Source: Candidatus Aenigmatarchaeota archaeon
GTDB taxonomy: Archaea > Aenigmatarchaeota > Aenigmatarchaeia > QMZP01 > QMZT01
Assembly: GCA_043808015.1 (NCBI GenBank)
Contig: JAZDFI010000030.1
Coordinates: 1 to 58,371, forward strand
DNA length: 58,371 bases
Reading direction: 5' to 3'
Of the stretch, positions 17,397-41,165 are shown piece after piece. How positions within the stretch are numbered: position 1 is the first letter of the stretch; each line of letters begins with the position of its first letter. The notes beneath the pieces are model-generated. The model was not told the DNA's origin. It did not search any database and saw only the letters and a list, made by a program, of their open reading frames with translations. The position numbers and the translations under genes were made by a program.

Positions 17397-17675
17397 CTAC
17401 CACTGTCTGAGTTTCTTTTTTATCCTGTCTTCGGGCCGGCCGATGATGATTCTTCCATCCACTTTTACCCAAACAGAATCGACGCAGAAAGAGAAAACAC
17501 CTGTTTCTTTCGCGACTGAGATTTCTTTGCCCGCGGTTGTCTCGATGACCAGCATGTTCCGCGTCTCGTCTATCACTTTTCCGTTCAACCCGGCCAGCTT
17601 TTTATCGGCGTCGCTGACGATTCTTATCTTGAGGCCTATGAGTTCGTGCCTGACCAGATTTTCCGGGGTTATCAT
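17397..17675 (-). CDS. rnp1: ribonuclease P protein subunit Rpp29/POP4
   Basis: HELIGL, G.VIDETRN, GRPEDR; conserved position in the operon. Confidence 0.93.
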   Translation of the reverse strand: MITPENLVRHELIGLKIRIVSDADKKLAGLNGKVIDETRNMLVIETTAGKEISVAKETGVFSFCVDSVWVKVDGRIIIGRPEDRIKKKLRQW

Positions 17676-34398: not shown

Positions 34399-34510
34399 GC
34401 CTCGGTGGCTCAGTGGTAATTTCGAAGGAAGCAGGTTTTACCTGCTTCAGTCGCTAAAGAGCGTTCGCTTGGTAAGCGAAAGGTCGCGAGTTCAATTCTC
34501 GCCCGGGGCT
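34399..34510 (+). tRNA. tRNA-Thr(GGT) with a 40-nt D-loop intron (34418-34457, position 20/21)
   Basis: Acceptor GCCTCGG/CCGGGGC, anticodon arm TTCGC-TTGGTAA-GCGAA. Strict BHB: GCTC/GAGC outer helix, AGTG/CGCT central helix, GT|A and AA|A bulges, restoring GCTCAGTGGTAGAGC. Confidence 0.93.
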
Positions 34511-38754: not shown

Positions 38755-39771
38755 ATGCCAGCACATGTGGAAGAGATGCTCGAGGCGATGCAAAAGCCCG
38801 GCACGTATGACGAGCGAGTCGACGCGATCAGCATGGTGCAGACGCACATATCATGGGTTTTTCTCATTGGCAAGTTCGCATACAAGATAAAGAAGCCGGT
38901 CAACTTCGGCTTCCTCGATTTCACCACGCTAGATAATCGCAAGAAGTTCTGCGACCTGGAGATGCGCATAAACAGCATGTTCTCGCCTGATATTTATCTC
39001 GGCGTCGTGCCTCTCAAAAAGTCCGGTAACAATCTTAAGTTTTCAGGCATCGGTGAAACGATAGAATACGCCATAAAGATGCGCCAGCTGCCGCAGGAGG
39101 GACTGATGAACAGGCTCCTCGACCAGAACGAGATAAAAACCGATATCATAGACAAGATAGTAGCCAAGCTCGCGGATTTTTATTCCAAGACGCAGACATA
39201 CACAAAAAAAGACGCCATCGGTTCGCTCGATACGGTCGCGTTCAACTGGAAGGAGAATTTCGACCAGACGCTCCCGTTCGTCGGCAAGACGCTCAGTCAG
39301 GAAACCTTCGACTCCATAAAGCAAAAAGTCGAAGCCTTCATGGCGGACAATGAGCGGCTTTTCGCGCACAGGGTGCGCAACGGCAACGTCAAGTGGTGCC
39401 ATGGCGATTTGCACTCGGGCAACATTTTCGTCATCAATGGCGACGTGTACATATTCGACGCCATCGAGTTCAACGAGCGCTTCGCCTGCTCCGACGTGGC
39501 CAGCGATATAGCGTTTCTCTGCATGGACCTGGATTTCCGCCACAGGTCATACCTGTCGGATTATTTCGTCAAAAAATACATCGAGGAAAGCGGCGACAGC
39601 GAAATGCTGCGTTTGCTTGATTTCTACAAGTGCTACCGCGCGTACGTCCGCGGGAAGGTCATCGGCTTCCGTCTCAACGACCCTCACATACCGGAAAAAG
39701 AAAAGCAGGAAGCAGCCGGCACAGCGAGGCTGTACTTCCAGCTGGCTCTGCAATACGCGAAGAATTTCTGA
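38755..39771 (+). CDS. aminoglycoside-phosphotransferase-like kinase (COG2187 type), without the usual C-terminal P-loop kinase domain
   Basis: QTHISWVFL, YKIKKPV.FGFLDF, CHGDLHSGNI, FDAIEFNERF, YKCYRAYVRGKV. Confidence 0.85.
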   Translation: MPAHVEEMLEAMQKPGTYDERVDAISMVQTHISWVFLIGKFAYKIKKPVNFGFLDFTTLDNRKKFCDLEMRINSMFSPDIYLGVVPLKKSGNNLKFSGIGETIEYAIKMRQLPQEGLMNRLLDQNEIKTDIIDKIVAKLADFYSKTQTYTKKDAIGSLDTVAFNWKENFDQTLPFVGKTLSQETFDSIKQKVEAFMADNERLFAHRVRNGNVKWCHGDLHSGNIFVINGDVYIFDAIEFNERFACSDVASDIAFLCMDLDFRHRSYLSDYFVKKYIEESGDSEMLRLLDFYKCYRAYVRGKVIGFRLNDPHIPEKEKQEAAGTARLYFQLALQYAKNF

Positions 39772-39793
39772 AAATTAATTTTAAAAGAAAAGA

Positions 39794-39970
39794 TAGCGGG
39801 GGATGGAACTTCAGAAGGAAACAGATTTTCTATTTCTTTCTTTTGAACCATCGACCTCTGGGTGTCCCACTGGAACTAGTTCCAGCGATTCTAGAGCCGC
39901 TATGGGCCCAGCGAGCACTCCAGGCGTTGAGAGCAACCGAATAATTCGATATGCTTTGCTCCACCCCGCT
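39794..39970 (-). tRNA. initiator tRNA-Met(CAT) with three introns: 14/15 (39926-39956), 37/38 (39864-39900), 59/60 (39808-39841)
   Basis: Removing the three segments at BHB-type bulges (CA|A..AC|G, TA|G..AC|A, AA|A..GT|T) gives a 75-nt AGCGGGGTGGAGCAGCCTGGAGTGCTCGCTGGGCCCATAACCCAGAGGTCGATGGTTCAAATCCATCCCCCGCTA, with A1-U72 and three G-C pairs in the anticodon stem. Confidence 0.92.
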
Positions 39971-40520
39971 ATTGTTTGGCTTTAATTGAATTATTACTTG
40001 TCTTTATAAATTTAAATGAAATGTAAAGAGCGTAAGATGGGAGTTTATCTTTTTTTGATTTCACTCTTTTAGCCAAAGTAGAATCGAGATCGAAATTTTT
40101 TAATAAAGATTTTATCTTCTCAAGAAGCTTTTTGTCTGTATTGATTATTTGAATATAACTTTTTTTCCAACTTACGTAACCATCAGAATCTATAAGACCA
40201 GAAATCACTCCCATATTAAAATTTTTATTTTTTGTGAATCTGAAACTGGAAATATACGAAAACAATTCTTTTGATCTGACTCTTATCTTATTACAATTAT
40301 ATCTTTTATCTTTTGTCACCGTTGGGGCTAAATTTATTTTTTCAAGAATTTTAATTAGGTATTTTTGTATTTCTCTATCTTTCACGGAGTTTAGATAAAA
40401 TTCTACATCGTAATGTCTGTTTTTAATATCGTGATAGATATACCCATCACCTAAAAATAAACCTATCAAATAACCCGTATCTTTGTCACTTAATTTTGAA
40501 AATATTTCTCCACTCCGCAT
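39969..40520 (-). CDS. free-standing double-motif LAGLIDADG homing endonuclease
   Basis: YLIGLFLGDGYI and VISGLIDSDGYV motifs; very AT-rich; stop codon TAG overlaps nt 1-2 of tRNA-iMet. Confidence 0.85.
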   Translation of the reverse strand: MRSGEIFSKLSDKDTGYLIGLFLGDGYIYHDIKNRHYDVEFYLNSVKDREIQKYLIKILEKINLAPTVTKDKRYNCNKIRVRSKELFSYISSFRFTKNKNFNMGVISGLIDSDGYVSWKKSYIQIINTDKKLLEKIKSLLKNFDLDSTLAKRVKSKKDKLPSYALYISFKFIKTSNNSIKAKQ

Positions 40521-40541
40521 AATTACTATATCTATCTAAAA

Positions 40542-40549
40542 TATTTAAA
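40542..40549 (-). promoter_or_regulatory. TATA box for a leaderless LAGLIDADG transcript
   Basis: TTTAAATA with 21 nt between it and the ATG at 40520. Confidence 0.5.
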
Positions 40550-40591
40550 TATTTCTCCACCCCGCTGTGCTATAATGTATGAAGAATAATG

Positions 40592-40608
40592 TTTATAAAT
40601 AACTTTTA
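40592..40608 (-). promoter_or_regulatory. BRE/TATA positioned for the orphan 12-nt tRNA 5' fragment (probable original tRNA-iMet promoter)
   Basis: AAAAGTTA-TTTATAAA on the minus strand, 25 nt upstream of AGCGGGG at 40566. Confidence 0.5.
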
Positions 40609-40625
40609 CGAGCGCGGCTGAAGGT

Positions 40626-41165
40626 TTACTTTTTCCTGGCGGGCTTTTCCTTATCCTCTTTTTTGCATTCCGCAGCCTTGTGTTTGTGACCAGCGAAGCG
40701 GTCATAGAAAATGCCCAGTATGTATCCATACGCCACGAAGAATGCCGCGCTGATGGGTGCGAGCAGGATGAAGCGCGTCTGCACCATGAACAGGCCGCCT
40801 ATGAAGCCGGGGTATGCAAGCTCGCCCAGTATTATGCCGACAAGCAGCAGCAGGCAGAGGAAAATTCCCTTCCTCTTCGAACTACTGCCCATAAGGCTTT
40901 CGTACATGAGGGCGAATATGAATGTCATTATTATACCCGCTATGATGCCGCCGACTATCGAGCCCGGTATGGCGGCCATCATGCCTATGTCGGCAAGCTG
41001 GTCCATGGTCATGGGTATGTTTGTGCTGGATGGTATCGATGCCCGGATAATCGCCTTTATCTCTTCCCTGTAGAAAACGTACGAGAGAACGCTGGTTATG
41101 CCCTGCATCACACCATAGATGATGCCTGAAACCAGACCGGTCTTAAGCACCCTGGAAAAGTCCAT
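40626..41165 (-). CDS. hypothetical four-TM membrane protein
   Basis: Hydrophobic Gly-rich helices and a basic tail. Confidence 0.7.
   Translation of the reverse strand: MDFSRVLKTGLVSGIIYGVMQGITSVLSYVFYREEIKAIIRASIPSSTNIPMTMDQLADIGMMAAIPGSIVGGIIAGIIMTFIFALMYESLMGSSSKRKGIFLCLLLLVGIILGELAYPGFIGGLFMVQTRFILLAPISAAFFVAYGYILGIFYDRFAGHKHKAAECKKEDKEKPARKK

Follow-up and report, generated by a model that had tools for sequence, protein, structure and literature searches.

The stretch of DNA analysed in this study (the window) is contig JAZDFI010000030.1 of a Candidatus Aenigmatarchaeota archaeon, 58,371 nucleotides (nt) in length, which is contig C30 of a genome of 39 contigs and 934 kb (G000). Identifiers beginning with G denote genomes, and those beginning with L denote individual loci, including metagenome loci. 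On the minus strand of the window, a complete gene for the initiator methionine tRNA (tRNA-iMet), interrupted by three introns, is overlapped at its 5' end by an open reading frame (ORF) for a free-standing LAGLIDADG homing endonuclease. Upstream of the ORF, on the same strand, lie an orphan duplicate of the first 12 nt of the tRNA and the predicted native promoter of the tRNA gene (Table 1).

In its unspliced form the tRNA-iMet escapes both ARAGORN and Rfam, and the spliced 75-mer is reported by ARAGORN as tRNA-Met(CAT). It has an A1:U72 pair and three G-C pairs (GGG/CCC) at the base of the anticodon stem, which we take to be hallmarks of initiator tRNAs. The local folds at the intron boundaries resemble bulge-helix-bulge (BHB) structures; they are clean for the 37/38 intron and for a 7/8 intron in the related genome G004, and relaxed for the 14/15 intron. 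In an environmental contig without introns 2 and 3, the exons are joined exactly where the alignment places these boundaries. The initial annotation of the window, which was made from the sequence alone, had placed the 14/15 intron 2 nt past the duplicated segment, and intron 1 mapped to that place. A search of positions 39500–40900 against Rfam found no intron family, group I introns included, and returned only five weak, unrelated matches below the gathering scores.

Every element upstream of the tRNA was found in the order and at the place given in the initial annotation, with the correction that the gap between the first TATA box (P1) and the orphan is 24 nt and not 25 nt. In the empty G003 allele the same box, at the same spacing, immediately precedes the tRNA, and in G004 it precedes the orphan; the spacing falls inside the 22–37 nt range of the other G000 tRNA genes. 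The A-rich bases before P1 are a putative BRE. The 12-mer AGCGGGGTGGAG, initially recognised as tRNA nt 1–12, has two sites in the window (40566–40555 and 39970–39959) against 0.18 expected, a number reached by 1 of 100 shuffles, and a repeat search of the window reported the core of the 12-mer in three copies. The same search showed that the orphan belongs to a tandem duplication whose unit consists of tRNA nt 2–12 followed by AAATATTT, and that the ATG and the first seven codons of the ORF come from the second unit. The resemblance between the start of the ORF and the orphan junction, which had been remarked on earlier, is thereby resolved as one unit of this duplication, a layout that G018 and L081 share. 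A second TATA-like box (P2), also listed in the initial annotation, lies in an A/T-rich stretch at a distance from the ATG that is identical in all three alleles of clade I of the enzyme tree (G000, G018 and L081), and its geometry is that expected of a promoter for a leaderless mRNA, a function predicted from this spacing. At the other end of the ORF, the A and G of the stop codon TAG (39971–39969) double as tRNA nt 1 and 2, in agreement with the initial reading. The GC content is 0.25–0.28 across 40000–40599 (about 0.27 in the ORF) and 0.45–0.55 in the flanks; because the value for the ORF compares with about 0.51 for the genome, the endonuclease gene appears to be of foreign origin.

Table 1. 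Features of the tRNA-iMet locus in the window (contig C30), with related features on other contigs of the same genome
Feature	Coordinates	Strand	Basis or remark
Complete initiator tRNA gene, 177-nt precursor, 75 nt spliced	39794..39970	-	alignment to the intron-free G022 allele
tRNA exons	39970-39957, 39925-39901, 39863-39842, 39807-39794	-	alignment to the G022 allele
Intron 1, 31 nt, position 14/15	39926..39956	-	relaxed BHB-like fold; 2 nt beyond the duplicated segment
Intron 2, 37 nt, canonical position 37/38	39864..39900	-	two 3-nt bulges around a helix
Intron 3, 34 nt, T-loop	39808..39841	-	alignment, local fold, environmental contig
P1, native tRNA promoter, TATA box TTTATAAA	40591..40598	-	predicted; 24 nt before the first base of the orphan
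Copy A, orphan duplicate of tRNA-iMet nt 1-12, AGCGGGGTGGAG	40555..40566	-	
Tandem duplication of a 30-nt unit (two copies spaced 47 nt apart, 80% identical)	40489..40565	-	repeat search
P2, TATA-like box TTTAAATA, exactly 21 nt before the ATG	40542..40549	-	predicted
Free-standing LAGLIDADG homing endonuclease gene, 183 aa	39969..40520	-	
First LAGLIDADG motif, LIGLFLGDGY, residues 18-27, acidic D25	40440..40469	-	five-sequence alignment
Second LAGLIDADG motif, GVISGLIDSDGY, residues 104-115, acidic position 113	40176..40211	-	five-sequence alignment
P3, candidate promoter TTTAAATTTATAAAG in the last ORF codons; TATA box ends 32 nt before tRNA nt 1	40002..40016	-	
LAGLIDADG ORF, stop TAG = tRNA nt 8-10	C15:2729-3454	+	
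LAGLIDADG ORF running through the first tRNA exon into a D-loop intron	C14:40628-41392	-	
LAGLIDADG ORF, stop TAG = tRNA nt 8-10	C8:33808-34692	-	
LAGLIDADG ORF, stop TGA = tRNA nt 3-5	C22:5448-6185	-	
GACGC...GCGTC hairpin sites	C6:1218(-), C7:37465(-), C9:57535(+), C9:57648(+), C18:23443(-), C22:1901(-), C28:8798(+), C29:79962(+)		

A Pfam search of the ORF identified LAGLIDADG_3 (E 2.7e-20, in two stretches), LAGLIDADG_WhiA (E 2.9e-7) and Hom_end, and found no recombinase domain. The protein has two LAGLIDADG motifs, each with a conserved acidic residue, as is characteristic of single-chain LAGLIDADG endonucleases. Among five aligned family members, G24, D25, G26 and Y27 of the first motif are invariant, as are G108, I110, D111, S112, G114 and Y115 of the second, in which position 113 is D or E in all five. 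When a profile built from the family alignment was compared with the PDB, the best match was I-DmoI (E 7.3e-7). The top Foldseek matches of an AlphaFold model were likewise all I-DmoI (E 1.3e-7; template modelling (TM) score 0.46–0.48), with WhiA among the weaker fold matches; since the model is mediocre (mean predicted local distance difference test (pLDDT) score 65, residues 96–119 poorly predicted), the fold match is taken as supportive only. On the basis of its motifs and profile, the predicted product is an ordinary member of the I-DmoI type of single-chain LAGLIDADG enzymes, for which DNA cleavage is predicted. The ratio of nonsynonymous to synonymous divergence (dN/dS) between pairs of alleles is 0.09–0.16 where dS is measurable, indicating that the protein is maintained by purifying selection.

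With a membership cut-off of E ≤ 1e-25, the endonuclease family is present in 16 of the 371 genomes of the phylum, 11 further genomes having come from the phylum-wide search. Among 60 relatives of G000, close homologues are encoded in G018 (68% identity) and in G004, G035 and G044 (46–50%), and G032 carries a pseudogene; a metagenome scan returned nine loci, of which seven were new and two repeated G018 and G044. The initial annotation had left it to further work whether such homologues are tRNA-associated. Twenty alleles lie against the tRNA-iMet 5' end in the same orientation, a single allele (L161 of G110) enters the tRNA-iMet 3' end in the antisense orientation, and three are cut by contig ends, so that the neighbour is tRNA-iMet in every case with visible context. 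A global protein search gave only 33 relatives at E ≤ 1e-10, and those that are named are annotated as hypothetical or as generic intein or homing endonucleases, apart from one evident mislabel as DNA gyrase subunit A.

Distant relatives with 25–34% identity lie inside the 16S ribosomal RNA (rRNA) introns of G010 and G025, and in the phylogenetic tree the iMet enzymes are monophyletic with respect to these 16S-intron enzymes (support 100/100). Clade I comprises G000, G018 and L081 (93/97), clade II comprises G004, L083–L085, L088, G035 and L082 (91/94), and there are deeper branches besides both clades. Judged by sequence relationships and genomic context, these putative endonucleases are a family specialised on tRNA-iMet in Aenigmarchaeota-like DPANN archaea and sister to the 16S-rRNA-intron enzymes. 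G000 and G004 belong to the same genus and carry their enzymes at the same syntenic locus, yet the two enzymes are only 46% identical and fall into different clades, which requires at least one horizontal replacement.

Alleles lacking the ORF were examined through a conserved 16-nt piece of the tRNA, which was found in 39 of 61 related genomes, and all of those loci were read. The initial annotation had proposed a search for empty alleles, in which the promoter leads straight to the tRNA, and such an allele was found in G003, the nearest relative, whose flanking proteins at the syntenic locus are 87% and 97% identical to those of G000. There, the P1-type TATA box and its leader, in which 7 of 36 nt differ by eye from G000, continue without any ORF into AGCGGGGTGGAGC, and the 31-nt 14/15 intron is identical to that of G000. 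The G003 locus is the empty allele of the G000 locus, and the comparison between the two defines an insert of about 597 bp that consists of the ORF and one copy of nt 1–12. The alleles of G001 and G002 are also empty and are without the 14/15 intron. Furthermore, in short contigs from two sediment runs the same promoter and nt 1–12 continue without interruption into nt 13 and beyond (5 of 101 nt differ), and these empty, intron-less alleles occur beside contigs identical to the window.

Presence or absence at this one fixed site, occupied in G000 and empty in G003, is accompanied by several stages of decay. Remnants of the last codons of the ORF persist in G014 and G045, the endonuclease copy of G032 is a pseudogene split by another small ORF, and that of G184 is a pseudogene with an in-frame stop. 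In the G045 locus (L048), a long ORF that looks by eye like a transposase gene lies directly upstream of the few last endonuclease codons before the tRNA, which suggests that the endonuclease gene was displaced by an insertion sequence. At L163 (G246) there is no endonuclease stop codon before the tRNA, and the frame reads through the whole tRNA-iMet to give an open frame of 242 aa.

The occupied alleles have in common an intron near the 5' end of the tRNA. All 20 have an intron within tRNA nt 4–15, versus 10 of 32 empty alleles, the latter being the alleles from the related-genome loci that have neither ORF nor remnant. The automatic count of empty intron-bearing alleles was 11 and was reduced to 10 because the truncated locus of G037 has no intron by eye; four automatic intron placements in occupied alleles were also corrected by eye. 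The first introns of the occupied alleles are 14–43 nt long, contain no ORF, and are located at position 4/5 (n = 3), at 6/7 to 7/8 (n = 9), at 10/11 (n = 2) or at 13/14 to 14/15 (n = 6). The enzyme clade predicts the intron position across host families, which is more telling than the counts: an intron at 13/14 to 14/15 is present in all three clade I alleles, and an intron at 7/8 in all six clade II members of the tree whose tRNA is visible, as well as in G347 and in the G032 pseudogene, both outside the tree. Crowding of the intron positions into a 12-nt stretch is what would be expected from selection for the breaking of a recognition site of about 20 bp. The link between enzyme and intron proposed in the initial annotation is thus strongly supported by this association.

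The orphan, which spans tRNA nt 1 (or 2) to nt 10–12, stands just before the start codon in 14 of the 22 alleles with visible upstream sequence. A TATA box lies 20–26 nt before it, and in clade II the ATG follows 1–5 nt after it; given this layout, the original tRNA promoter should drive the endonuclease mRNA, with the 5' end of the tRNA serving as its 5' untranslated region (UTR), and in the window the orphan probably forms the 5' end of the endonuclease transcript. The constant endpoint of the orphan suggests a shared ancestral junction or a cut position. Mutation of the orphan in L081, the loss of one base in L084, degeneration in G337 and mutation or shortening in G074 and G079, together with its mismatch to the host tRNA in G018, G300 and G249, indicate that the orphans are not working exons. 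In clade II (L014 of G004, L083, L084, L085, and L155 of G347), a third partial copy, corresponding to tRNA nt 1–7, is found in the last codons of the ORF, 8–20 nt before the real start of the tRNA; in G347 this third copy keeps G2, and both the orphan and the real tRNA have A2.

The tRNA itself may be produced by either of two routes. One would be read-through from P1 or P2 followed by cleavage by RNase P at 39970; Rpp29 (PF01868, E 3.4e-23) is encoded in the window at 17415–17663 on the minus strand, as the initial annotation had stated, and RNase P is therefore present. The other would be transcription from the TATA box inside the last codons of the ORF (P3). This box resembles the promoter of the G000 tRNA-His gene, has a spacing inside the 22–37 nt of the other tRNA genes, is conserved in G018 and L081, and persists 26 nt before the tRNA in the G014 remnant, from which the rest of the ORF is gone. 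In addition, identity at third codon positions is 0.67 in the last full 15-codon window versus 0.36 overall, in a small sample. Transcription of tRNA-iMet from P3 as a substitute promoter is therefore a possible reading of the conserved sequence.

Taken together, the element is probably a free-standing, I-DmoI-like homing endonuclease gene that sits at the 5' end of tRNA-iMet, has captured the promoter of the tRNA gene, and travels together with an intron that breaks its target. The initial annotation had proposed a tRNA-targeting selfish element, and the empty alleles and the consistent location of the homologues at tRNA-iMet agree with it, with mobility as the inferred part of the proposal. 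The arrangement has the features of collaborative homing: the endonuclease gene lies outside the intron and adjoins an intron-bearing tRNA, the intron is free of ORFs, and enzyme and intron are inherited together, in genomes which are related and not phylogenetically independent.

In the proposed mechanism, the insert would enter after nt 12 of the original tRNA gene and end with its own copy of nt 1–12, and from this position it follows that the promoter and the 12-nt orphan come to head the endonuclease transcript and that a complete tRNA is rebuilt downstream. The enzyme would recognise the 5' part of the tRNA gene as long as no intron interrupts it, the intron of occupied alleles would destroy the recognition site and thereby confer immunity, and the enzyme gene and the intron would spread together. 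The orphan may mark the cut site and may act as a portable left homology arm. Repair could proceed by one-sided copying from the donor followed by joining to the unresected left end, or by single-crossover integration of a small circle at the break. After the duplication both homology arms would lie in the conserved tRNA, so that the unit could enter lineages with unrelated promoters, and recombination between the 12-nt copies would delete the ORF precisely and leave an allele of the G003 type.

Several observations weigh against this interpretation. The orphan is absent in 8 of the 22 alleles, and the duplication is therefore not obligatory. It matches the unusual tRNA variant of the host in G347, L088 and L084 and does not match the host tRNA in other alleles, so that the origin of the orphans is mixed. 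Ten empty alleles have a 5' intron, including that of G003, which has the identical intron without the ORF; the intron could thus predate or outlive the enzyme. The Fisher test gave 0.01 for 5/0 versus 11/21 and about 1e-6 for 20/0 versus 11/21, values that overstate the evidence because the genomes are related and not phylogenetically independent. The dS among alleles is high (>1.3), which means that most copies are old and that vertical descent with losses explains part of the pattern. Moreover, the tRNA-Ala-like gene adjoining the LAGLIDADG ORF on contig C15 (Table 1) has no 5'-proximal intron, and the intron rule therefore applies to the iMet family and not to tRNA-linked enzymes in general.

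Alternative explanations were weighed against the same evidence. Were the ORF part of a giant BHB intron, the orphan would in reality be exon 1, and the splicing endonuclease would excise the downstream copy of nt 1–12 with the ORF, as happens with rRNA introns that carry endonuclease genes. The sister enzymes (25–34% identity) do lie in 16S rRNA introns, and the small 5' introns pair through their 3' parts with the 5' strand of the acceptor stem (for example GCGG/CCGC in the 7/8 intron), so that an upstream copy of the acceptor strand could in principle pair there too. However, only the downstream copy allows the inner helix of the 7/8 BHB to form, the downstream tRNA gene is complete in 20 of 20 alleles, and the G000 orphan is followed by A and not by C13, so that splicing from it would break a D-stem pair. 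Decayed orphans (L081, L084, G337, G074 and G079), orphans unlike the host tRNA (G018, G300 and G249), and the eight alleles without any orphan argue in the same direction. A giant intron was accordingly rejected as the main model, since the ORF precedes a complete tRNA and is not bounded as a BHB intron, as the ORFs of the 16S sister enzymes are, and we regard it as very improbable.

It is also very unlikely that a site-specific recombinase supplied in trans produced the 12-nt repeats as duplicated attachment sites, or that the insert is what is left of a larger integrated element, with the endonuclease as cargo. Such an origin would account for the tRNA segment repeated directly on either side of the insert and for the reconstituted tRNA, both of which are seen in integrase-mediated integration, and the layout matches the integrase-type model for Caldiarchaeum in the available part of PMC3293823. 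Nevertheless, the comparison of G000 with G003 leaves nothing in the insert other than the LAGLIDADG ORF, in which neither a tyrosine recombinase nor any other recombinase domain was found, and 20 alleles show this minimal unit, each with a single ORF, this sole conserved gene being under purifying selection. A further explanation starts from the LAGLIDADG fold, which has been reused in maturases and in WhiA-type regulators: the protein might be a domesticated host factor, a regulator or helper of the interrupted tRNA, that is no longer mobile. Strong purifying selection, deep synonymous divergence, the strict location at tRNA-iMet and the Pfam and fold matches to WhiA would all suit such a factor. 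The family is restricted, however, to 16 of 371 genomes and is absent at the same locus from the nearest relative, G003; pseudogenes and remnants exist, the base composition is foreign to the genome, the acidic active-site residues are kept, and two clades occupy the same locus within one genus, all of which makes domestication very unlikely.

A mobile endonuclease with a partner intron, the interpretation preferred here, can be compared with several known systems. The enzyme belongs to the same family as I-DmoI and the other archaeal rRNA-intron LAGLIDADG enzymes, with a single chain of about 180–200 aa and two motifs. Unlike the genes of those systems, it is located outside both the intron and the mature RNA, between promoter and tRNA, its target is a tRNA and not an rRNA gene, and the accompanying introns are 14–43 nt long and ORF-less. 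In phage T4, SegB is a free-standing GIY-YIG endonuclease encoded in a tRNA gene cluster, without target duplication or an intron partner. Cyanophage F-CphI with its psbA intron is reportedly a case of collaborative homing. As in such phage systems (F-CphI/psbA and T4 mobE/I-TevIII), the endonuclease gene stands beside an intron-bearing target and the intron interrupts the presumed target site; in the phages the partners are group I introns and HNH or Endo VII-like enzymes at protein genes, whereas BHB introns, a LAGLIDADG enzyme and a tRNA gene come together at the present locus, which belongs to an archaeal chromosome and has a duplicated target segment. The available parts of PMC6083498 and PMC2790892 describe collaborative, or trans, homing, in which free-standing phage endonucleases are paired with introns that lack an ORF.

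A parallel in layout is the Caldiarchaeum tRNA-Thr element of Sugahara et al. (2012), for which the available part of the paper (PMC3293823) describes a 1.8-kb insert with a recombinase and recombination between attP and attB, and in which it is proposed that an extra tRNA intron blocks further invasion. As far as that part of the paper goes, both elements have an orphan 5' fragment and an insert followed by a reconstituted tRNA, whose extra intron lies close to the point where the fragment ends, and in both the gene for the enzyme is the same-strand neighbour of the tRNA. In contrast to integration of the Caldiarchaeum, pNOB8 or SSV type, the insert here is about 0.6 kb long and its only gene encodes a LAGLIDADG endonuclease, so that movement must go through break repair. 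The initial annotation had put the system forward as a candidate for an undescribed one; the combination of features is indeed undescribed in the literature searched, but its layout has been published for an integrase-type element, as the available part of PMC3293823 shows, and the system is therefore not wholly without precedent. Free-standing LAGLIDADG genes flanking tRNA genes in archaea were not described in the full-text literature searched, a search outside which many subscription papers lie, so that their absence is unproven, and the available parts of PMC10714607 and of a Nanobdellota preprint do not describe them either. The arrangement unites two ideas that were already described, collaborative homing and this integrase-type layout. 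What is new here is the lone LAGLIDADG actor, the BHB introns, the docking outside the mature tRNA, the capture of the promoter and the breadth within the lineage. Within the literature searched, this would be the first case found of collaborative homing with BHB introns, and also of free-standing LAGLIDADG genes docked on the ends of archaeal tRNA genes.

LAGLIDADG genes are linked to other tRNAs in the same lineage. G000 encodes nine LAGLIDADG ORFs, five of which overlap the 5' ends of same-strand tRNA genes, namely tRNA-iMet, the tRNA-Ala-like gene on C15, tRNA genes on C14 and C8, and a tRNA-Ser gene on C22; one of the others starts just after tRNA-Asn, and three have no tRNA nearby. The general statement in the initial annotation that archaeal LAGLIDADG genes normally reside in rRNA introns or inteins consequently fails in this lineage. 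The enzyme on C15 has a counterpart with 93% identity in G004, and the syntenic loci of G003 and G002 are empty. With a detector that requires an uninterrupted T-arm, a same-strand tRNA was found at the end of the LAGLIDADG ORF in 32 of 57 locus rows, which is not a clean frequency because many rows are duplicated under two identifiers and because several of the misses are tRNAs, recognised by eye, that have T-loop introns or lie in antisense orientation. A 'tRNA-Glu with a 720-nt intron' reported by ARAGORN on C9 was considered as an endonuclease-bearing intron and rejected as a false call in ordinary coding sequence.

Orphan 5' fragments at the other tRNA-linked enzymes were sought at 18 loci, by exact matches of at least 7 nt and 200 shuffles. 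They were significant at L101 (16 nt, 0 of 200 shuffles) and L132 (9 nt, 1 of 200) and suggestive at L094; no match was present at 13 of the 18 loci, and L096 and L137 had only 7-nt matches at chance level. Local alignment lengthens the fragments to 22 nt in L101/L136 (G053), 26 nt in L132 (G002, contig C4) and 13 nt in L094 (G033). The orphans of L101, L132 and L094 are free of introns, and each ends a few nt from the intron of the complete downstream tRNA.

Antisense LAGLIDADG ORFs that enter the tRNA-iMet gene from its 3' end are present at L073 (G003), L126 (G019), L120 (G039), L051 (G047) and L161 (G110), and these ORFs stop in the T-loop or in a T-arm intron. Because of L073, the G003 allele, although 'empty', is flanked by an endonuclease ORF at its opposite end. 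Beside the antisense 3'-side enzymes, no orphan 3' fragment turned up at any of the five loci examined; the same check also took in a sixth locus, that of a 5'-side tRNA-Ser enzyme.

The abundance of archaeal tRNA introns at odd positions is an old open question, for which the locus offers a concrete, testable system. A standing idea, attributed to Randau and Söll in the available part of PMC4090602, is that introns shield tRNA genes from integrating viruses and plasmids. As a tentative and somewhat doubtful extension of the findings, endonucleases that dock on tRNA ends might be a main driver behind the many non-canonical introns of tRNA genes in DPANN archaea, and possibly elsewhere among archaea. 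Every lineage of enzymes would travel with its own target-breaking BHB intron and leave immunised alleles behind after its decay, the duplicated tRNA end would serve as both 5' UTR and homology arm, and tRNAs with multiple introns would carry the scars of successive invasions. The locus would represent a selfish element reduced to one gene and seated on an essential tRNA gene, for which empty, occupied, decayed and intron-only alleles exist in nature, and the family might supply compact endonucleases with specificities for tRNA genes.

Two further observations concern tRNA genes elsewhere in the genome. ARAGORN reports a 67-nt 'tRNA-Thr' at 34444–34510 of the window, and a tRNA-like 5' end, GCCTCGGTGGCTCAGTGG, lies about 45 nt upstream of it (34400–34510); it is probably a misparsed intron-bearing tRNA, and the same pattern is also present on contig C28. 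In addition, a hairpin GACGC...GCGTC followed by (C/T)TTCG(C/A) stands directly 5' of at least six G000 tRNA genes (sites in Table 1), and it is also found inside tRNA introns and, once, in both the leader and the intron of one tRNA-Tyr. This hairpin may be a mobile BHB-like element or a signal for leader processing.

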